Shown here one piece after another: positions 3,263 to 64,000 of a DNA stretch of 64,000 bases. The notes beneath the pieces were generated by a model that worked only from the letters and a program-made list of their open reading frames with translations, was not told the DNA's origin and searched no databases. Numbering within the stretch: the first letter of the stretch is position 1; every line of letters starts with the position of its first letter. Source of the stretch: a virus. The DNA lies in IMG/VR virus record IMGVR_UViG_3300032308_002246, positions 1-64,000 of that record; one strand, 5' to 3'. Made by a program: the position numbers and the translations under genes.

Positions 3263-3297
3263 AAAAAGTGGGTGCTCCTCATAAGAAGAGCACCCAC
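3263..3297 (-). terminator. intrinsic terminator
   Basis: GTGGGTGCTC-TTCTTATGAG-GAGCACCCAC-TTTTT downstream of the Xre gene. Confidence 0.75.
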
Positions 3298-3325
3298 AGA
3301 ATGAGTAAGACGACGGCTGCCTGCA

Positions 3326-3538
3326 TTAAACGCCGGCAAGCATGCTCTCTGGCTTTACTCCGAAAGCAACAGAGATGCGAAGCAACGTCTCAATATTTGG
3401 CGAGAAGTGTCCGTTCTCAATGCGGTTGATTGTCTTGCGGTCCACGCCGGCAAAATCTGCGAGCTGTTGCTGTGTAAGCCCAGCTTCGAGGCGATTCTGT
3501 TTGATGCGCGATGCAACTTTCTTGATGCGGGTTTGCAT
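3326..3538 (-). CDS. XRE-family HTH regulator
   Basis: RIKQNRLEAGLTQQQLADFAGVDRKTINRIENGHFSPNIETLLRIS. Confidence 0.92.
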   Translation of the reverse strand: MQTRIKKVASRIKQNRLEAGLTQQQLADFAGVDRKTINRIENGHFSPNIETLLRISVAFGVKPESMLAGV

Positions 3539-3568
3539 TTTTTTCTCCTTGTTTTATCCTGGCCAGGT

Positions 3569-4511: not shown

Positions 4512-4802
4512 TCACACCTCTGCGAATTGTGGAATCAAGCTAATGAAACCATCATTTGGATTATCGTTATCTGTCCAGACAGCTGAGATGAAGCGGAGTC
4601 CGCATGAAACATCCCACCACTCCTGAATTTTCTCATACATCTCCCAAGGGGCGCCACGAAAAGAAACTGAATTGTTTTCTTCCGTGTAGTTCCTCTCAAA
4701 CCATGCAGCTTGTTCTGCGTCCATAGCGAGGTAAATCTTGTGACATGAATCCCAAGAGATGAGCAGTGCGCTCATTGTTGCTTTTTCAACGTCTTCCCAC
4801 AT
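4512..4802 (-). CDS. hypothetical protein
   Basis: Start MWEDVE with GGAGG SD; WDSCHKIYL...WWDVSCGLRFI. Confidence 0.7.
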   Translation of the reverse strand: MWEDVEKATMSALLISWDSCHKIYLAMDAEQAAWFERNYTEENNSVSFRGAPWEMYEKIQEWWDVSCGLRFISAVWTDNDNPNDGFISLIPQFAEV

Positions 4803-17293: not shown

Positions 17294-17520
17294 CGCCTGC
17301 GACGCAACATGATTTTGCGTTCGTCTTCAGTCTTTCCCCCGTAGATGCCAAACTCAATTGAATTATCAAGAGCATACTTGAGGCACTCTCCACGGACAAG
17401 GCAAATTCCACAATACCCAAGAGCCTCTAAGCGCTGTTTGCGATTGCGCGGGAAGAATGTGAGCGTATTTGCACTAATGCACGCACGTGCCGAACGCCAG
17501 CTGTCGCCTGAGTAAATCAT
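17290..17520 (-). CDS. whiB: WhiB-family Fe-S transcription factor
   Basis: W...ARC...FFP...CGICLVRGECLKYAL....FGIYGGKTEDER. Confidence 0.93.
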   Translation of the reverse strand: MIYSGDSWRSARACISANTLTFFPRNRKQRLEALGYCGICLVRGECLKYALDNSIEFGIYGGKTEDERKIMLRRRR

Positions 17521-21221: not shown

Positions 21222-21575
21222 ATGACAATGGAAGAAAAACAGAATCAGCAGTTCAATGGCAGACACGAGACGCTGAATCTTGAAGGTCCTCCAGATTTCC
21301 CAAAAGGTGGAGCTTGTGTCTCTTATCCGACTGATTGGTTTTTCCCTGAACCACCACTAGGCAGAGATGAGCTTGAAAAGATAAACAACGCAAAGAGCAT
21401 TTGCTCCAAGTGCTCCATACAGATGGAATGTCTCACTTACGCAATGGAATGGGAGCCATTTGGAATATGGGGAGGAATGACGGAGAGCCAGCGTAAATTC
21501 CTCCGCCAGAAGATGAATTTTAAAACCCGACGATATGATGAAACAATCCGACTACAACAGTTAATGAGTACATGA
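21222..21575 (+). CDS. whiB: WhiB-family transcription factor
   Basis: AC...TDWFFP...AKSICSKC....ECLTYA....FGIWGGMTESQR. Confidence 0.93.
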   Translation: MTMEEKQNQQFNGRHETLNLEGPPDFPKGGACVSYPTDWFFPEPPLGRDELEKINNAKSICSKCSIQMECLTYAMEWEPFGIWGGMTESQRKFLRQKMNFKTRRYDETIRLQQLMST

Positions 21576-39454: not shown

Positions 39455-39743
39455 CATTGACCTGTTAAGCGCAAACACTGAGGTCCCTAGCTTTGATGGT
39501 GCATGCCGGGGAATGCCTACCGACTGGTGGTTCCCAGAAAAAGGCGCAGGCGGAGAAGACAAGTTGAACAACGAAAAAGCTGTTCAGATTTGTAAATCAT
39601 GCAGCTCGCAAACAGAGTGCCTTGACTTCTCGTTAACATTTATGAATCTACAGGGGATTTGGGGTGGGCTCTCACACAGGCAGAGGCAACGTGAGAGGAC
39701 AAAACGTGGGGTAAAGGTAATCCAGGATAGGGTCAAACATTGA
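39447..39743 (+). CDS. whiB: WhiB-family transcription factor
   Basis: ACRGMPTDWWFP...ICKSC....ECLDFSL....GIWGGLS.RQR. Confidence 0.92.
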   Translation: MHDIDLLSANTEVPSFDGACRGMPTDWWFPEKGAGGEDKLNNEKAVQICKSCSSQTECLDFSLTFMNLQGIWGGLSHRQRQRERTKRGVKVIQDRVKH

Positions 39744-47943: not shown

Positions 47944-48477
47944 CTATATTGCGTCTATTATTAGATGAACTCGGTCGCTATTACCCGTGTTTTCAACACC
48001 ATGATATCTGTTGACATTATCTATCAGCCAAATCTGCCCTGGCTTCAGGTTCATTAACTCATTTCCTACGCTAAAAATGCATCCTTCATTCGTCAAAACC
48101 GGAACGTGTATCCTGTGGGTTTTAGCTGTCAACGGGCCTTTATCCATATGTGTTGGTATAACAGTGCCGGCTTTTAGCTTCGCTAGCATTGCTTGTCGCG
48201 TATAGACCTCTCCAAGGTGCTTTGAAGCAGCCAAAACAATTTCTTCTATATACGCACTAAATACATCGTAGTTTTCATGGAGGATTTTAGAATTAAGACG
48301 ATGTTTTTTATCGTACATTAAGGGAATCGTATGGGTATTTTTTGAAGCTATTCCACCAGTTTTTTTACGTTCTGTATATCTAGTCCAGTCTTCTGTTGTC
48401 AGATTCAATACCTCATTAAGCAATCCTGCAAATGAAGGCATATCTCCAATAAAGAAGAACGCATTGTTTTCCTTCAT
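47944..48477 (-). CDS. aspartyl/asparaginyl beta-hydroxylase-family oxygenase
   Basis: LKAG..IPTHMD...RIHVPV.TN...G..W.IDN...H.VEN....RVHLIID. Confidence 0.88.
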   Translation of the reverse strand: MKENNAFFFIGDMPSFAGLLNEVLNLTTEDWTRYTERKKTGGIASKNTHTIPLMYDKKHRLNSKILHENYDVFSAYIEEIVLAASKHLGEVYTRQAMLAKLKAGTVIPTHMDKGPLTAKTHRIHVPVLTNEGCIFSVGNELMNLKPGQIWLIDNVNRYHGVENTGNSDRVHLIIDAI

Positions 48478-48498
48478 ACACAATCTCTCCATATATAG

Positions 48499-48538
48499 CA
48501 AAAACCCCGCCCACCCCAAAGGAGCGAGCGGGGTTTTT
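48499..48538 (-). terminator. intrinsic terminator after the capsid gene
   Basis: AAAAACCCCGC...GCGGGGTTTTT. Confidence 0.8.
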
Positions 48539-48549
48539 ACCAGTGCTTA

Positions 48550-49872
48550 TTAGGCTTCTGGAGCTCCGTCGAAGGTTACCTTCACGAATGACTCTGGACG
48601 CTTGACAGCAAGGGCGAGTCTCTGCTCGGCCAAGATGACAACTGCGTTTCTTACGAAGAAGTCCGAGTGCTGTTCGCTGATGCGAATCGATGCCTGCTCA
48701 CGGTCATACAACTGTGCGCCTGTACCGAATGCTCCAACAAGTGCTGTGCCTTCTTCGATTGCTGGGCTCTCCACGACTGGGATTCTCCATACTCTTGGCT
48801 CACCGCCGAGAGCAACGGAAACAGCGACCAAGTACTGGCCGTTCTGGTCCTTTGTCGTTTCAATCTTTTCCCAGTCAAGTGGGTTAAGAACAACGCCAGT
48901 TGGCTCGTAGTAAGCCAAGAATGACAAGGTTGCAGCGCGACGAATCGCATCTGCCATCGTGTCTGGAACTGGACTCACAACGCCGTCTGACCAGTCGTAG
49001 GTTTGGATTCCAGATGTCTGAAGAACACCGGTAAGGTTTTCGCCAATACCGTCGCCGTTCAAAATCTGGTCATCTTCCTGCAAACGGAGGCCGTACATCA
49101 ATTCGTTGTCGATGATTGAGCGTAGTTGTGGCTCATCAGCGAGAACGTTTCTGTGTGCTGCTTCCCAGTGAGCAAGCGTGCGTACTGGAGCCTGTTGGCC
49201 AACGAATACGAAGCTTGACTGTGGCTTTGGACCAAAGTTGTTGCCTGAACGCTCTGCAACAGACGATGCACTGTTTGTACCGCCACCAGTTGACGTAAAG
49301 CCAAGGTGCTGGAAGTATTCAATGACAGCTGCTGAAGTTGTGCGGACTGGGAACAAGTCACGAACACGCTTGGTACGCATTGGAGGCGTAACAATTGCAT
49401 CGCGCTGAATGGTTCCGAACGAGCCAGGAGTGCCTGATGGCAATGCTGAGTAAACGTCCTTAACATTGAAGCCGGTAAGCGAAGCGTTCATCTGGAAAGG
49501 TGATGGCATGTTTGCGCCATTCTTTCCACCCTGAAGCGACTTAAACTCAGCTGAGTTAACGAATGCGTCTCCAACGCTCATACGGCGCTCTGACTGTTGT
49601 GCAGATGCGCCTGCTGCTGCAGCTGCTGCTACAGAGTCTGATGATTGCTGTGAGCCCCATTCCGAGACACCCTTCATTGACTCAAGGCCCTCAATGAGGC
49701 TCTTGATTTCGCGGATGTCGCCCATGTTCTTATCAAAGGCTGACTTCTGCTCTGCGGACACAACAACCGTACCGTTGTCAACTCTGAATGAGTCAGCAAT
49801 TGTCTTGTTGTCGGCCATTTTTTCTCTGAGAGCTCCTTGGAGTTCTCTTAAACGTGAATCGTCGAATGACAT
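48550..49872 (-). CDS. HK97-fold major capsid protein with N-terminal delta domain
   Basis: VRDLFP, KPQS, VRTLAHW, LAD.PQL.SII...L.YGL...ED.QILNGDG, FVRN.VVILAE.RLALAV.RPESFV. Confidence 0.96.
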   Translation of the reverse strand: MSFDDSRLRELQGALREKMADNKTIADSFRVDNGTVVVSAEQKSAFDKNMGDIREIKSLIEGLESMKGVSEWGSQQSSDSVAAAAAAGASAQQSERRMSVGDAFVNSAEFKSLQGGKNGANMPSPFQMNASLTGFNVKDVYSALPSGTPGSFGTIQRDAIVTPPMRTKRVRDLFPVRTTSAAVIEYFQHLGFTSTGGGTNSASSVAERSGNNFGPKPQSSFVFVGQQAPVRTLAHWEAAHRNVLADEPQLRSIIDNELMYGLRLQEDDQILNGDGIGENLTGVLQTSGIQTYDWSDGVVSPVPDTMADAIRRAATLSFLAYYEPTGVVLNPLDWEKIETTKDQNGQYLVAVSVALGGEPRVWRIPVVESPAIEEGTALVGAFGTGAQLYDREQASIRISEQHSDFFVRNAVVILAEQRLALAVKRPESFVKVTFDGAPEA

Positions 49873-50216: not shown

Positions 50217-53200
50217 CTATCTTCCTCTATCAAAATTTGCAAAGTCAAAGAGTTTAGGGTCCATTACTTCCAGCTGCTCATTAATTGCTCTTCTAGCAAT
50301 CATGATTGGGTTCATTGGGTCATTGGTAGTGTCGTAAACAAATAGCTCATCAAAGAATGGGTCTAGGTTTGGCAACTGGAAGTAAAGCGTCCTGTTTATA
50401 GCTGGAGGAATCCAGTCAGGAACCATTCTTCCGGTTCTTTCAAATCTTTCTGCATTTCTTTCCAGAATTACATCATCTGGCGAGAAGAAGTAGTGAGCAA
50501 CAACTTTATATCCAGCATTTTTCCAGTTGATGAGGTCTCTATTGCCGTCATTAAACTGACCGCTTGTATCATAAGTCATATCTACGCCCTCTGAAGCAGC
50601 CCTCCTCATTAGTGAGGCGGCCAATGCACGAGACTCTGTGTGGGTAAGGTTGGCAGCATCAGGTAGACGCTTTTCAAACCAGTAACGTGCTTCAGGCATA
50701 ATCATTTTTGCATCATCTGGGTCAACAACTACTGCATCTTCGTATGAAGGTATTCCTGCAAAGTTTGTATTTCTAGCATTTGTTTTGCCGGTTCCAGAAG
50801 CTCCGCCAAGCACATAAACAGTTGGCTGTTCATTGCCACTATCAAACTCAGGTTTTGACACTCTTGCAATGCTGTTTTCTATGTAAGGAACCCAGAGGCC
50901 GTTGTATCTGTCATCAGAAACTCTGTTGCCATTAAGTCTATATTTTTGCGATGTAGAAATTGGGTCTGATGAATTCAGTTCATCAATTGAATATCCAGAC
51001 TGGTATCCAAGCAGGTCGAGGTCTTCTGCAAGAGACTTATCAACTATTGGTCGTGATGGTTTTGCAACCTTTCCAACAGGACCATCTGGATTCCAGGAGT
51101 CACTCTTGAAATCAACGCCCCAAGGCATCAAAGGATGCGGCATCTTGTCATTTGGCAAGAATCTTTCAGCATCTTTTTCAGCTCGTATTTTATTTATTCT
51201 TGCAATTATTCTCTGGTTTCTTATTCTTTGTGCTTTTGCAAGTATGTTCAGTCTCATTGCTAATGACATTCTCAGGTCGCTAAATGGGTCAGCAGAATTT
51301 GAGCCTTCATAATCCTTGCCCATTTTTGCTACAGCTCTTCTCAACCATTCTGCATGTCCAAATGCGATTGGGTACTTGCCTCTTGCTATATCTTCAAGTG
51401 GAACCCAATTTGCAGCTTTCGCATCTGAAGCAGCCGTTACATTTGAATCCCATGGAACAACAAACAAGCCGGCACCAACTCGTGCGCCCTTAACAAATCG
51501 TGGGTCCCAGTCTGGTGATGTAATAATTCCAAGTGGTTTGGCTTCAATTGATGACTCAAGGTCAATTCCAACCTCTTCCAAACCCTCTCTTGTAGCAGTG
51601 GTCATGTAGTCTTCGTTTCCGTCTCGCAATCCTCCAACAAGGGCTTTTGCGTTTGTAAACGGTCCACTCTTTCTGTCAATCATAAGCACTTCAGCTGAGC
51701 GCAAGTCGTTATTGTTCATTCTTATGATTACAGCATCTGAAGCTTGTGTCAATTTGTTTTTAGCAAGAGACCAGTTGTTAGTAGACCATGTAACATCCTC
51801 ATCATCTCCAGATGTGAGGTTTTTACTAATGTCCAGCGGTGAGTAGTTTGACTGTAGATAAGCCGCTCTCCTCAAGTTGTCCGAAGCTATGTCTCGAGGT
51901 CCGTAAACAGTTTCGTAGTACTCGTCCTGTGGTTGCATCTCAGGCATTCCATAGATACCTTCAAATGACTTAATCAAACCATCAAATGTCGACATACTTC
52001 CGGTTGGGGAATCATCGTTGAACAGTTCAATGTGCTTGTCGTTGTTGAATATTGATTTTGCTTTGGCTACCAGGTCTGTGTAATTCTTATAGTCTTTACC
52101 AGAGCGGTCAACCATTGCCTCTATGAGATTTGAACGATAGGCAATCGCCCCAACTATGTCCGATGGCTCTTCTCCTATTTCTCCGTAAATGAATGAAGAG
52201 TTGGTAGGGAGGATTGAGTCTGACGCAAAAGGGGATGCGCCTTCACGGAAGTCGTACGCTGGAATACTCCTGTTAGCCACACCAGATACATACAGGTCCA
52301 TCAACCTTTGTAGTTCTTGTACTTGCTCTGAGTCGGAAGCGGTGTTGTTCCTGATTGCTGGGTTTCTATCTCTGTTGAACCACAGGTTGGATGAGTTGTT
52401 TTCAGCTCTTAGTGCTTCAAGCTCTCTATCTTTTTGCAAAATTGCGTCCCTAGCAATACCCATTTTCCCAACTGGTCCACTCTCATTTGGGAAACGACCC
52501 ATTGAGAATCTCTTTAGAGTAGAAATGCTCTCAGCAAGAAGCTCTGCTTTGCTAGTTCCAAGAGATTGAAGAATATTGGAAAGACCATCATCTCGTCCGT
52601 CTTCTGTTTTTGCAATAGCTGCAATTAAATGCTCTGTGTCAATGATGTTTTCACCACGATTGAGTGCCTCACGAACTGAGTTAATCATTGTTTTTCTAGC
52701 ACCAAAACTTAATGAAATTACTTTTTCTGCGTTTTCATCTAGGTTTTGGGTTGTTGCGTTATTGACTGCATTACGCAAGTCGTTTACATCGATTCCAAGT
52801 CTGTTAAGAACTCTTCCGGCGATGCTTTGATTTACAGATTTCTTGCCAATGTTTTCTCTAGCAAGACCCAAAAGAAGATGCGGTATGGTTACCTCGCTGG
52901 ACTTGCCAAGTTTGGCTTCTTCGTGTGCGTGCACAACCGAAAGGATATTTGGCTTTGTGTATCTGTTTAGAGCCATTTTCCCTATAGGTCCATCATTAGG
53001 TGGAACAATTCTATTGTCACCAAGCTCTGATGATTCGGTAAAGAAGTTCTTTGGTATTTCATCCTCTGATGAATAGTATTCGTATGTTAAATCTTCATAT
53101 CCATTGTCATTCAACCAAGAATCAAATGTTTTTAGATTTTTAAACTTTCGTGGAGATGAAAATGTTGAATCTGGAGCCGCATCAATTACTTCACGCTTGT

Positions 53201-56200
53201 ATCGAGGCATCAAGGAGTTTCTTTGTGTTCTCTTGTCTTCTGCTTTTATGAACTGTGCAATTTTGTCAAAAGCATCACCAACACTAATTGTTGAATCAAA
53301 AAAGTTTAAGTATTCGCCAAATTTTTCAGCTATTGCAGACGATGCAAAATCTCGGATGAATGAAAAAGCCTGATTTTCGTCGTTTGTATTCAACGCATCA
53401 ATAACTTTCATTGTGAGACCATCAATTGTGTCAGCTATTTCTTCTGCACCAATTTCCTGCGCAAAACCATTCAAAGCACCAAGAATTTCTATGGCTCTTA
53501 TTGAGTCATTGCGATTTGCTCTTAGTTGCTCTATTTGTTCAAAAACTGAATCCATTGGCGTCATTACTTCATTTAATGCACCCTGCGTTCTTCTTAGATT
53601 ATTTATTGCAGTTGTATTTTTTTGTGATTCTACGTATCTCTGATATGTTGCTCTGGCGTCTTCATCAAGAGAATTTATTTTTTCTTCTGTGAAAGCATTA
53701 ATTTTTTCAAATCTTTCTGCTTGTCGCGGCGTAAGCATTGAAGCTATATCACCTGACATCACAGGGTATGCATCTGAGGAATTAGACCAATTTACCCATG
53801 GGAAGTATGAGGACATTGTCATATTTTCTGACACTCGTGTTTGATTTTCTTTAAGAGCATCAACTTCCGACCGCAAGAAACCGCTTAACTGAGAATAAGC
53901 CTTTGCAAGAGCAAGTTCATCTTTATTTAGAGATACTCCATCCGAAAGAGTAATTCCGAAAAGCTGTCTTAGCATTGCCGAAGCATTTTCGTCCGGGGAA
54001 TCAGAAAGAGATTCAGTAAGAGCTTTTACATACTCAGAGAACTCGGCTCCTGAATCCATTGCAAGAATATCTTTTGTTGTAATTGGACTATCTGTAGATA
54101 TCTGGCCGTTTTCGTCCTGCCACCAATAAACATCTGGAGATGTCTCGTATTGTTCATACAGAGAATCAACTTCTGCTTCAGTCCCTGGTCTGGCAAACCA
54201 TTTAACATTTTTGTTATATGGTCTTGAGTCTTCAAATCCACTGTAAACAATGTCTGGGCCATATATTGTGAACTTGCCATCAGCTGCTCTTCTAGGAGCA
54301 ACAGAAAGCATGTCAAAAGAGTCATCTGACATCTTTGAGTTAGCAGAAGAAAACTCTATTGCGTCTGCAAAAAGAGCACCCATCGTGTCAGCGAGGTCTT
54401 TTACAGAGTCATACCATCTTTCGGTTTGCTCAGGATTGAGCTGTACAAATTTATCGCCTTTTTCTCTAGCTATATCCTGAAGAACAAATGGTGAACCAAC
54501 TTCATCGTATATTGATTTGAATATTCTGTCCAAATACCACCCAAGCATTTGGTCGTCTGCAACCGTTCTGCCCATGAAGTCAGAAATTGGATACATTGCG
54601 CGGTTGACATCGTTTACCGCGTCAAGCATCATGGAGTGAACGGCAGACATTACCTGTGCGGCTTTGAATTCACGTGTTGTGGCTGTTCTCATCCACTCTT
54701 TTATTCTATTTCTTGAATCCTCGTTTAGTCCAATTCGTTCAAGCTCTGAGTCTCTCGACATCAAACGAACTGCGTCATTAATCCAGTTTGAGTCTCCAGG
54801 TACAAAACCAGCAGTGGTTCTGCCAAGAGCTCTGTAAATCATCATTATGTCTTTAGCAATTGGACTATCAAGCGATGTAATTGATTCGGCATCAATAAAG
54901 CCTGATTCATACTCTATTGCGTCATCTTCGCTTTCAGAATATCCATCTACTCCAAAAGCTTCTGTTATTTCTTGCTCCAAAAGCATTTGGTTATATGATT
55001 CACTCATTATTTTTCGCATTGACCTAATTAGTCCAGGGAATTGACCCTCTTGAATCATGTCAGATACGGATTTGGTTTTGTCATTTTCCAACTCGGGGAA
55101 TACGCTTGGCGCATCCTCATCTGGACCACCTGCAGCTTCGTAAAGCTGTCCACCGAAAGCATGGTATTTGAGCAAATCACCAAGACCGGAGAACCATTTA
55201 ACAAGTGCTTCTTGGTCTTTTGGTTCTCCATCAGAGAACTTACGTGCTTCAACTGGTCCGTAGAACGGGTTTCCAACTATAACTGGCGGTGAATCTGGGA
55301 GGAAAACAGTAACTTCTGGATTGTCTGAGTCCCATTCTGGTGTTGGGCCATTTGACTGAGAAACATCACTTGGTATTCTGCGACTAGCCATTGCCCCTGC
55401 AGGACCAGAAGCCATTGCCTCATATGCATTTCTAAACGATTGTCTTGGCTGTGCGTTTTCTTCCGATGGCTGAATTATTGAGTTCAAAGCAGCCGCGCCT
55501 ATTCCATACTTGCGCATCGCCTGTCTCTTTGACATTCCTGATGCAATGTCATCAACAATTGCTTTTCTGTTTTTCGCAATCCATTCTTGTGAGCCAACAG
55601 AAGATGGAGCTACACCTGACTTCCTAAGCTCGTGAAGCAGATTTCTTACAGTATTTGGGTTAAATCCAGTAGTGTCAACAATATCTGATTCGTTATATCC
55701 TGCCTTAGCAAAGGATGCAACAACATCTCTTCTTGACTCCGGCATTATTGAAGACATAAACTTTGATGCTTCATCAATGCTTGGGTTCTTTTTCCCAACC
55801 TGCTTGTAGAATTCTTCGAGCTTGCCATTTCTTGCAAGGTCTCTAGCAGTTGCCATTTTAGGGTTAATCGTTCGGCCAAGAGCGCTTGATATTTCAGAAT
55901 CAGTTTGTCCAGATTCAATTGATTCAAATACTGGTTTCATTTCCGACCAGTTGCCAGCAATCCAGAGCAGGTCTCCGTCTGGTCCAACTTCTTGTTCTGA
56001 AGCAGCGTAAGCAGGCCATATATTTTCGGGATTTTTACCTATTGAATGGGCGAGCTTCCTAGCTGCATTTACAGAAAGATTAAACTTTCCACTTCTAAGC
56101 TTCTTTGCTGTAGCCGGTGATGTATTTAAAAATACAGCAAAGTTTTCATCGCTTATATTTTGTGAATTTGGAATAGCCTCAATAAATTTTGATGTTGGCA

Positions 56201-59200
56201 AGAATCCGGTTCTTATTAGGTCTGAATCCTTTACACCTCTCCAAGCAAATATTGGGCTCACGCCATTTTCATCGCTTGAATTTGTTCCATAGATGTTTTT
56301 ATCCAAGTCTGCTTTTTTCAAAGCTGCAGCCATAGCTCCATAAGGACCATCCATTGACCCAGATGACTCTATGTCTTCTGCGTTTTGTCGCAAAGCAAAG
56401 TTTCTGGCTTGTTCACCCATTCTCTGCTTGGCTTCATCTGAATTGAGCCAATCTTGTCTTTCACCGTAAGTCATGTAATCCCAGTCATTGGGGAGAGCAG
56501 AGTAGTTCTGGGGGGCTCGCCGTGCTGGTCTTGAAGGCCTATCCCCATCGTTAACTAAAGCCATGTATATGGACTTGGCCGAATCCTGATGAATCCCTGT
56601 TAGGCCAGCGGCGACACGAGGACTCATGTTTGGAAAATCAGCGAACAACCTCATAGCCCGGGCCATTCTTTCCTTAACCGAGCCGAGAGTTTCGTCGTTA
56701 AGTGCAACCAGCTTATAAGCAGAACCCATTCCTCTTGTTTTTGTTATTTCGGGGAATTCTTCATTCAATATTGAATAAGCTGAAGCAAGGGTGTTTGTTG
56801 GTATTAGCTCGTTAAATCTTTGTTGCATTTTTGCATATGATTTTCTAAACTTGTCAGCGTTTTTATAGGCGTTTACTGCATTTGTAAGTCTTGTCTTATC
56901 AAAACCATATTTATCAGCAACTTGACCCAGAGTTAATTTTTGGACATCGTATTTAACACTTGCCAAAAGCGACTCTCTAATCGCAGCAATTGAGAATATT
57001 TCCGTGACTGGAATGTTATTTTTTCTAGCCAAAGAGTATACATCTGCACCGTTATCTATTTCATTGAGAATCTGTGATGTTCTTGATGGCATGCCTTCAG
57101 AAGAATATGTAGCATTAATTAGATTTCTAATATCGTTTTCTTTTTCGGATGCAATCATCTTGCCGACTGAACGATTGTATTCATTCTGTAATACATTTTT
57201 GAGCGTTGTTGGCATGTCTGTTAGTTCATTTGAAAGAGTTCTAACCGCTCCAACAGGAGAAGACTGAATATTCTGTCTAAACGATTCAATTCTTTGTCTT
57301 GCTGTAACATCCCTATTGTCAACTAGGTCAATAGTTTGTATTCCATTAACAGAACGCAATTGTGACAACATCACACTGCTTAATGCTTTTTCTTTTTTGG
57401 TCATTGATATATTAAATGGAGTATAAAGATTTGAAGAATTATCAGCATATTCGTCAAAACCATTTATTGCTCCAGAATCGCCGAACAGGTAGCCAATTTT
57501 TTTCATATTCCCAACAGGGCCTGAGCCGATTACTCCGTCTCCATTGTTGTCGGCAAGATTCTTCATTGATTCGTTTACCGCTCTTTGAGCCATTAGTACA
57601 TTCATGTACTGAGCTGAGTCGGCAACCATATCCTTAAGTTCTGCGGCCCTGCTCATCAACTCGTTCTTTTGCTCAATAATGTCCTGTCTTGCACGCGAGC
57701 TAGCTTCTGCTTTGGTAGAAAATGATTGTATTTCAGCTTGCATTTGCAAAATCTGTGGACCATATTCGGAGTCCCACTGTTGTATCGAAATTAAATAATC
57801 TCTTGGGTTTATTGCTCCTGCACGAAGTTTTTCTTTTTGGCCAACGATAAACATTTCTCTAGCTTTTATTATTGATGAAGTTGCGCTAACTCTTGATAGA
57901 ATTTGTGCACGTATTCTTTCTTGATACTGGCGTGATGTTCTTTCTTCTGCATCGTCAAGTTCATTTATCGCATTGTCAATACTGTAAATTTCGCTAATCA
58001 AATCACCTGAGTTTTGTGTAATTTCAAGAACTTTTGCTAAAGCTTTTACCCTTGATTCTGCCTGTGAACGTGCGTTGGCTGCATTTCTTGCAGCTATCAG
58101 AACTGAATCAAGATTGTCTATTTGGTCATTCTCGCGTAGAGCTGTTTTTATGCCGGCAATAACTGCATCTGGGTAATAGCCATCACGCAAACCAATTTCT
58201 GATTCATCAAGCATTAAACCGCTTGTCATGTCCTTAAGCCATCCATCTCGGAGTGCTTTGCTTGATTTTGCTTTTGAGCGAGCTATTTTTTTCTGTTTAT
58301 CAAGCTCCATTTTCTCAGTAGCGCTAAGTCTTCTTTGCGAAGAGAATGAGCTCATTCCATATCTAGCTCCATTGCCGCTTGAACGATAACGCTGAGGGAC
58401 CACTGGAACTCTTATTGACTCAGCTGCCTTTATTGATTCTTCAAGGTCTTCGCCTTCAAGCCAACCACTTTGGTTCTGCACATAAATCAAAACCTTGTCC
58501 ATGTCAACTAGGCCTGGCTCATCGTTAATTGAACGGAGAAGAGCTTCAGCCTCTGTTCCGTATCTCCCATTTTCGTGGAACCAATCTCTTGTGAAGTAGT
58601 TGTTATTACCACCTATAAAAGACTCGTATCTGTCGTTAAGAGCAGAAGCTATTGGGTGTCTGTCTGGGTTGAAGTTTGATGGACGGAGCGACTCATCCTC
58701 ATCCATTTCTGGGTTATATACTCCAGAATCTTGTTCGTTGGACTCGTCTGCGCCAATGCCCTGTACGGAAACAGCGTCGTATCCGGTTAATCTCTGTGGT
58801 GCGTAAATGAGTTGACCATTTTTGAGTTTTCTGAACTCAGTGTTTTCAAAAGACTCATCGACTAGTCCATTTATTTCATTTACTAGTGTTTCTTCAATCT
58901 GTGGGTCAATTGCAATTTCATCAGGGCTTGTGTAGAAAAATCCATCAGGTGTATTAATTCCACGAACACCAAGTGCATCAATTGCGGCTTGCTCTATGTA
59001 CCCAAACTCATTTTTAGCCTGCTCATCATGCTTTCTGTGAGGATTAAGCGCAGCCTCTAGGAGTGCTTGTGCTTTTTGAGTTAATCCAGATGGCTTTCTT
59101 GCCATTGACCCAACTGGGGAATCGGAGAATTCATCATCGTCCCAGTCGTCTGGAGCATCAGCAAAGTCATCTTCTGGAGATATTCTACCAGCTCTGATAT

Positions 59201-64000: not shown

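Follow-up and report, generated by a model that had tools for sequence, protein, structure and literature searches.

A co-evolving motif punctuates a giant head-module protein of an uncultured actinobacteriophage and may mark cleavage sites of its prohead protease

The viral record IMGVR_UViG_3300032308_002246 is complete, comprises 173,962 bp with direct terminal repeats, and represents an uncultured phage of about 174 kb that has been ascribed to lake actinobacteria. We analyzed bases 1-64000 of this record (64,000 nucleotides, hereafter the window), which end within a giant open reading frame (ORF) whose product is punctuated by a recurring short peptide motif. The giant ORF is located on the minus strand at 50217-66254 of the record (ATG at 66254) and encodes 5,345 amino acids (aa). 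The window covers its part at 50217-64000 and thus leaves out the first ~752 residues. Colinear full-length homologs of 5,343, 5,437, 5,266 and 5,244 aa were retrieved from a set of 1.8 billion representative proteins, and the full-length giant homologs from other assemblies (P0002-P0007) range from 5,244 to 6,391 aa. Because such colinear full-length homologs exist, the giant ORF is not an assembly artifact. The gene directly downstream encodes an HK97-fold major capsid protein (48550-49872, minus strand; Pfam Phage_capsid, 2e-43) that shares 39% identity with HK97 gp5 over the shell domain.

The initial annotation of this stretch had listed 14 hexapeptides related to [GS]P.G.M (a dot denoting any residue) in the giant. 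All of them are present in the minus-strand frame within ~10 nt of where they had been placed, and an additional copy lies at aa 230, outside the window. The pattern [GS]P.G.M occurs 9 times in the giant compared to an expectation of 0.06 (300 shuffles), and [GS]P.G.[MVI] occurs 13 times (0.27 expected, shuffle maximum 3). Genome-wide, the strict form is found 21 times in four proteins of the head module (the ORFs of 5,345, 3,190, 1,748 and 852 aa, together 11,135 aa), while no copy is present in the 51,006 aa of the remaining genome ORFs of at least 100 aa.

Under a looser definition, the four head proteins contain 35 copies. Numbering the last residue of the motif as P1 and the following residue as P1', these copies have Gly or Ser at P6, Pro at P5, Val or Ile at P4 and Gly at P3. 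P1 is Met in 24/35 copies and Val, Ile or Leu in the other 11/35, and P1' is Ser, Ala or Gly in 26/35. Third codon positions vary at the motif (GGC, GGG, GGT or GGA for Gly, CCT or CCA for Pro), therefore the constraint acts on the peptide and not on the DNA. As a separate observation on codon use, the P3 Gly is encoded by GGG in 13/35 copies, compared to 11% of all Gly codons in the four genes.

The comparison with relatives provides the strongest line of evidence. Relatives of the capsid protein number 373 in IMG/VR, 80 of which were kept (72-95% identity). Giant ORFs precede the capsid gene in many of these relatives. Among the capsid relatives, GP.G.M is used only by the closest ones, L008 and L009, and the others use ISG.M, ITG.M, VSG.M or P.ASM. 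Their capsids are 74-95% identical, yet close relatives have quite different motifs. Two complete genomes illustrate this: ISGRM is present 18 times in the head-module giants of G001 (137.8 kb) versus 2 times elsewhere, and ITG.M (ITGAM) 15 times in those of G002 (169 kb) versus 3 times elsewhere. No motif of the GP.G.M type was found in the G001 or G002 genomes. Across the lineages, Met is the only residue common to all Met-ending variants, with small residues at P2 and P3.

We aligned the giant over its full length with P0002 (82% identity), P0003 (37.5%), P0004 (30%) and P0005 (28%). Conservation of the motif in homologs, which the initial annotation had put forward as a check, was borne out in an unusual form: most sites keep their place, and the consensus shifts as a set, to PSGSM in P0003, P[TV]ASM in P0004 and [ED]AGM in P0005. 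From the N-terminal side of the window portion (all on the minus strand), GPSGAM (aa 977-982, 63309-63326) is aligned with GPSGSM in P0003 and EPMAAM in P0004 and P0005. GPIGKI (aa 1153-1158, 62781-62798) is aligned with DPTGSM in P0003, SAVGSM (aa 1694-1699, 61158-61175) with TASM in P0004 and EAGM in P0005, and SPVGSM (aa 2379-2384, 59103-59120) with NPSGSM in P0003. The P0003 counterpart of GPVGNM (aa 2912-2917, 57504-57521) is SPSGSM, and GPAGAM (aa 3617-3622, 55389-55406) corresponds to SPSGSM, GPTASM and AMAGM, with SGAM or TGAM in P0006 and P0007. Closer to the C terminus, GPVGKM (aa 4593-4598, 52461-52478) is aligned with GPSGSM, GPVASM and AEAGM, and SPTGSM (aa 4749-4754, 51993-52010) with APSGSM, EPSASM and PEAGM. 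GPVGKV (aa 5058-5063, 51066-51083) is GPVGKM in the closest relative, L008. The sites coincide with the homolog's own motif at 11/14 positions in P0003, 8/14 in P0004 and 8/14 in P0005, compared to a mean of 0.3-0.4 and a maximum of 4 for random site placement (5,000 trials). The same concerted turnover was seen again in an independent alignment with locus L011. Dispersed sites that are fixed in place and change together are therefore read by one partner that changes with them.

Three of the hexapeptides first noted are probably not functional sites, their aligned positions carrying no lineage motif in the divergent homologs. SPVGAV (aa 2999-3004, 57243-57260) matches the pattern and is probably no functional site, as no lineage motif occurs at this position in the P0003, P0004 or P0005 alignment. 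RSVGKM (aa ~3030) falls in a predicted helix of the second structural model described below. GPYGAM (aa 3303-3308, 56331-56348) lies within a block GS[ML]DGPY[GP]A and is probably not punctuation. All three are probably chance or unrelated matches. The block itself (window 56331-56366, minus strand, aa ~3297-3308) is invariant in all full-length homologs; it resembles the motif in this phage, yet does not turn over with the lineage motif.

The giant contains three modules of recognizable family and fold near its C terminus. A module resembling the N domain of ClpC1 and ClpC2 (aa 4428-4582, 52509-52973) matches Pfam Clp_N (PF02861; 1.5e-11, 44.7 bits), and Protein Data Bank (PDB) sequence searches returned ClpC2 and the ClpC1 N-terminal domain with values down to 4.7e-10. 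Its model has the Clp_N double-repeat fold, with Foldseek target template modeling (TM) scores of 0.82-0.87 (0.85 for the ClpC1 N-terminal domain). The module is not accompanied by an AAA+ module and constitutes a stand-alone N domain, like mycobacterial ClpC2. It is followed by a Nudix hydrolase module (aa 4841-4972, 51339-51734; Pfam NUDIX, 2.6e-08; PDB 2fml) with Foldseek matches to NrtR and adenosine diphosphate (ADP)-ribose pyrophosphatase folds, and by a zeta-toxin-like kinase module (aa 5137-5279, 50418-50846) with the Walker A sequence GGASGTGKT. The latter matches Pfam Zeta_toxin (PF06414; 6.6e-17, 62 bits versus a cut-off of 22.3) and, by Foldseek, the epsilon/zeta, PezT and AvrRxo1 kinases (1gvn, 3q8x, 2p5t). 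A weak helix-turn-helix match is located at aa ~3511-3550 (55605-55724; Pfam HTH_23, 23.3 bits, slightly below the cut-off). All four regions are on the minus strand. Together with these, the giant comprises about nine modules without a detectable family, and aa 1-2500 had no match among PDB sequences. As guesses from family membership, the ClpC-N module could compete for partners of ClpC1, the Nudix module resembles hydrolases related to ADP-ribose or nicotinamide adenine dinucleotide (NAD), and the zeta-like kinase could target cell-wall precursors or NAD.

The motifs had been described as sitting at domain borders, and the Pfam assignments agree: Clp_N lies between the copies at aa 4422 and 4593, NUDIX between those at 4749 and 5058, and Zeta_toxin after 5058. 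An AlphaFold2 model of aa 4400-5345 (68 sequences, mean predicted local distance difference test (pLDDT) score of 76) leads to the same result. All 4/4 C-terminal motifs are in segments with pLDDT<50, between ClpC-N, Nudix and zeta-like folds that are predicted with confidence; such segments account for 17% of the model. GPIGKM (aa 4422-4427, 52974-52991, minus strand), which abuts the ClpC-N module, corresponds to model residues 23-28 at the edge of such a segment, whereas GPVGKM (model residues 194-199), SPTGSM (350-355) and GPVGKV (659-664) lie within the segments 186-202, 348-375 and 659-672. A second AlphaFold model, of aa 2850-3700, was built from a 7-row alignment only (mean pLDDT 57) and is weakly informative; it places the sites at aa 2912 and 3617 in coil, the former with low pLDDT. 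Further, gaps and insertions in the five-way alignment are somewhat more frequent over the 20 residues preceding each site and less frequent behind it. In the PDB sequence matches, residue 4 of ClpC1 is aligned with aa 4431 of the giant; residue 1 therefore corresponds to aa 4428, directly after the Met of GPIGKM. A cut after this Met would free a ClpC-N domain with an N terminus of native length.

Modules have been reshuffled between relatives at the motif borders. Whereas the Nudix and zeta modules are neighbors in this phage's giant, long distances separate them in those of G001 and G002, where each lies between copies of the local motif. Additionally, the module that starts at aa 1307, after SPVGRM (aa 1301-1306, 62337-62354, minus strand), is aligned from its first residue with a homologous module of a different protein in G002, where it starts right after ITGAM.

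The initial annotation had placed a possible protease in the N terminus of the giant, outside the window. Neither a protease nor a MuF domain is encoded there (aa 1-752); the region holds a DUF3721 domain (aa 38-73) and a leader described below. Searches of the whole chain against Pfam, PHROGs and PDB sequences likewise revealed no embedded peptidase, MuF, relaxase or Alt-type anchor. The MuF domain of this phage sits on the portal protein instead, fused to the C terminus of a 747-aa ORF (94742-96985, minus strand). A 277-aa protein encoded just upstream of the giant (66320-67153, minus strand) combines DUF3721, as found in the giant N terminus, with DUF5872.

A candidate protease is encoded ~19 kb upstream of the giant, in the 3,190-aa ORF (85085-94657, minus strand; L006:5085-14657). 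Its first 270 residues comprise Peptidase_S78 and DUF6321, followed by modules of the sigma-70 region 4 or Mor-like helix-turn-helix type, and the chain is punctuated 12-13 times by the same motif as the giant. Peptidase_S78 (PF04586, aa 30-173) scores 43.4 bits versus a cut-off of 21, and the region also matches the head maturation protease phrog_80 (2e-30). It is present as a single copy in the genome, and no protease of the ClpP or S77 type was found in the genome. Its His and Ser are aligned with H65 and S114 of HK97 gp4, which we take to be the catalytic residues; judged by these two positions, the protease appears intact. The head module is ordered on the minus strand as follows: the gene of the portal-MuF protein, the 3,190-aa ORF, small ORFs at 82881-84380 and 84578-85078, the 852- and 1,748-aa ORFs, smaller ORFs, the 687- and 1,466-aa ORFs (without the motif), the gene of the 277-aa DUF3721 protein, the giant and the capsid gene.

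The leader in the N terminus of the giant spans ~50 residues within aa 92-161 (record ~65772-65981), contains the blocks TA-x-[ND]AD-x-D, VLEG and GRG, and ends with DPTPGG. This DPTPG leader is common to the giant, to the 852-aa and 3,190-aa proteins (with copies at L006:2627-2866 and L006:12858-13100, both on the minus strand) and to two head giants of G001, and in the proteins that carry it, it always precedes the first motif copy. We regard it as a candidate packaging or propeptide signal. In the relatives G001 and G002, the protease gene encodes only 789 and 830 aa, equivalent to the first segment of the 3,190-aa protein. As the DPTPG leader is missing from these shorter proteins, the 3,190-aa ORF seems to be an in-frame fusion of a protease gene with a cargo gene that starts with the leader. 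A role of the leader as the protease's own capsid-targeting tail was rejected as a general rule on the same grounds.

Based on sequence, structural models and analogy, we consider it fairly probable that the motifs are cleavage sites of the phage's S78 prohead protease, which would act in trans and release packaged cargo. The giant would be a head-cargo polyprotein of ~11-13 unrelated modules, connected by disordered linkers, each with [GS]-P-[VI]-G-x-M at its end, after which comes a small residue. The precursor would enter the procapsid, possibly by means of its N-terminal DPTPG leader, and would then be cut at the motifs by the single S78 (HK97-type) prohead serine protease, supplied in trans from the head of the 3,190-aa polyprotein with the same motif. 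The cut would most likely fall directly after the Met, because this residue is common to all Met-ending variants and ends the conserved block, and because the next residue is small, as at a native domain start. The freed modules, namely a mimic of the ClpC1 N domain, a Nudix hydrolase, a kinase of the zeta type and many others of unknown fold, would be carried in the capsid and take effect in the actinobacterial host when infection starts.

Several points weigh against this proposal. We infer cleavage, the S78 enzyme as the reader, the bond between Met and the small residue, packaging and delivery alike from sequence, and the concerted turnover is evidence of a shared reader, not of that reader being a protease. 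The main weakness is that the capsid protein contains no copy of the motif and would thus not be cut at it, so that the protease would have to possess an additional or more relaxed specificity. Only a single weak copy (SPTGKI) occurs in the portal. Further, an insertion of 205 aa in L008, whose capsid is 94% identical, lies within a module after aa ~3050 (L008:2122-2735, plus strand) and is not flanked by motifs. In the cultured phages with the closest capsid and protease, DalanDe and Cantare, a scan of the head proteins showed no recurrent motif or enrichment. The maturation site of the capsid itself is ambiguous: the candidates are RRM|SVGD here and GFK|SIG in the ISGRM lineages, and K103|S104 of HK97 is aligned nearer to DVYS|ALPSG. 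Given this ambiguity in the alignment with HK97 gp5, RRM|SVGD was not used as evidence.

Concerted turnover and restriction to the head module would suit any trans-acting partner. They would also be seen with an uncut docking motif, read by a co-evolving part of the head (the inner surface of the capsid, a scaffold or the portal) that tethers the giant at intervals, and the virion RNA polymerase of phage N4 is packaged without processing (PMC5512222). We nevertheless consider docking unlikely. The conserved Met and small residue at the end of a linker, right before the native start of ClpC-N, are what a scissile site typically looks like, the protease segment is itself followed by the motif within its own chain, and modules of unrelated function are unlikely to work when chained. 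The lack of the motif in the capsid protein would be explained if a host protease cut the giant, or if it were cut only after injection, instead of by S78, and lineage-specific motifs could then follow different hosts. However, the motifs are quite different among close relatives with such similar capsids, and no phage protein outside the head contains the motif, although a host protease would encounter these proteins too. As the protease's own chain carries the same punctuation as well, we regard cleavage by the host as improbable.

Two further readings were weighed. The motifs might be relics of gene fusions or internal translation starts, the modules being former genes or proteins still made from an internal ATG. 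A Met followed by Ser, Ala or Gly indeed looks like an ordinary N terminus, some modules are found in different proteins of relatives, and the 3,190-aa ORF resembles a fusion of a protease and a cargo gene. However, the five residues before the Met are conserved and change together between lineages, which is unexpected for relic starts, the P1 codon is GTT, ATT or CTG at 11/35 sites, and Shine-Dalgarno-like words precede 1/35 sites versus 42/126 real ORF starts. Internal translation starts were rejected on these three grounds, and we give very little credence to this reading as a whole. A junction at the level of DNA that drives recombinational shuffling would fit the exchange of modules between lineages, but synonymous positions vary freely and leave no usable nucleotide identity. 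As conserved nucleotides at the sites across genomes were not seen either, a recombination junction was rejected and appears close to inconceivable.

Whether the model extends to a whole clade is, in our judgment, an evenly balanced question. Based on the sequences compared, a large clade of uncultured actinobacteriophages (the 373 capsid relatives in IMG/VR) may use a true polyprotein strategy, in which giants of 3,000-6,400 residues with unrelated anti-host modules would be loaded into the procapsid and cut by S78 into about a dozen proteins at Met-ending sites, and the cleavage code would drift fast and in concert per lineage (GPVGxM, PSGSM, PTASM, EAGM, ISGRM, ITGAM; possibly GLAS and G[ML]RS remotely). 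If true, each lineage would through this drift have a code for processing that is private to it, and new cargo modules would act as plug-in cassettes. Remoter giants that share the Nudix or zeta modules show other words of 4-5 residues every few hundred residues: GLAS (P0025, P0026, P0029, P0030), GMRS (P0027), GLRS (P0017), GLTGA (P0010) and STRS (L056). [DE]SG.M and SDTG.M also recur in remoter giants of the protein search. These recurring words may be further punctuation codes, and the principle may be broader. We found no description in the literature of the motif, of the clade, or of an S78 protease heading a punctuated polyprotein.

Other genes of the genome provide information on its surroundings and host. 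An Asp/Asn beta-hydroxylase-like gene (window 47944-48519, minus strand; PF05118, 4.4e-14) is located directly downstream of the capsid gene. Four genes encode WhiB-family proteins, three in the window (17314-17499, minus strand; 21309-21497 and 39498-39689, plus strand) and one at 173115-173306 of the record (plus strand). The four WhiB genes and the N domain of the ClpC1 type point to an actinobacterium as the host.

If cutting is confirmed, polyprotein processing on the scale of RNA viruses would take place in the head of a tailed double-stranded DNA phage, and the known role of the HK97-family maturation proteases would be widened. The motif provides a sequence-only rule by which phage 'dark matter', thousands of residues without annotation, can be split into discrete candidate effectors, for example the stand-alone ClpC1 N-domain, which may disturb the Clp system of the host. 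With their concerted drift, the many dispersed sites represent a natural series for studying the co-evolution of a protease and its substrates, and the cut sites could be reused for loading foreign proteins into capsids.

Among known systems, the polyproteins of RNA viruses, such as those with picornavirus 3C sites, offer an analogy and not homology. They share with the giant the single ORF with many products, the protease within a polyprotein and the short junction consensus. The giant, in contrast, belongs to a tailed double-stranded DNA phage, would be processed within the procapsid and carries accessory cargo instead of replication machinery. HK97 gp4 is a stand-alone protease of 225 aa that cuts the capsid delta domain and itself. 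The protease described here belongs to the same S78 family, keeps the His and Ser, and is found in a head module with an HK97-fold capsid. Unlike gp4, it heads a chain of 3,190 aa, and its proposed substrates are cargo polyproteins.

The closest cultured capsid is that of the Gordonia phage DalanDe (genus Bendigovirus; 48.7% identity), and that of the Brevibacterium phage Cantare is ~48% identical. The 'capsid maturation protease' of DalanDe, gp27 (1,633 aa, L004:14940-19841, plus strand), likewise has S78 in a very large protein encoded directly upstream of the capsid gene, at aa 1111-1296 of the chain, whereas it is N-terminal in the 3,190-aa ORF. In Cantare, too, the capsid gene is preceded by that of a large protein with the protease, which lacks a punctuation motif. 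The maturation proteases of DalanDe and Cantare gave no BLASTP match to the giant, their homologous domain being in another ORF. The ~75 C-terminal residues of DalanDe gp27 match the small ORFs at 82881-84380 and 84578-85078. DalanDe could serve as a culturable model for heads with a protease in a giant protein.

In T4 (gp21, L/I-x-E), phiKZ, 201phi2-1 and SPN3US (gp175/gp245, A/S/G-x-E), prohead proteases cleave numerous internal head and ejection proteins at motifs; N-terminal propeptides target the substrates, and the products remain inside the head until their ejection (PMC10052503). As in these systems, we propose one phage protease for many head proteins, with a short common motif and a small P1' residue, and the motif recurs in several head proteins and is rare elsewhere (21 versus 0, echoed in G001 and G002). 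The proteases of the T4/phiKZ type belong to the T4 gp21 type and not to S78, and they act on individual proteins, most of which lose a single propeptide, whereas the substrates proposed here are chains of 5,000 residues with 11-13 unrelated modules. P1 is Glu in the former and Met in the giant, whose motif also diverges sharply between close lineages, unlike that of the T4/phiKZ type. Cleavage has been shown by mass spectrometry in those phages, whereas we infer it for the giant. The polyvalent proteins of phages and conjugative elements (Iyer et al. 2017) are giant multidomain proteins whose genes neighbor those for packaging and the head. They are predicted to enter the virion and to be injected, include zeta-like kinases and are proposed to be processed by peptidases (PMC5512222). 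The giant resembles them: it is likewise multidomain with a zeta-like kinase, it combines many unrelated effector-type domains, and its gene lies amid the portal/protease and capsid genes. The polyvalent proteins were described with embedded peptidases (zincin-like MPTase and others) and without a recurring punctuation motif (PMC5512222). In contrast, the 5,345-aa chain holds no peptidase, its candidate protease is a capsid-maturation enzyme in trans, and its borders are marked by a co-evolving hexapeptide.

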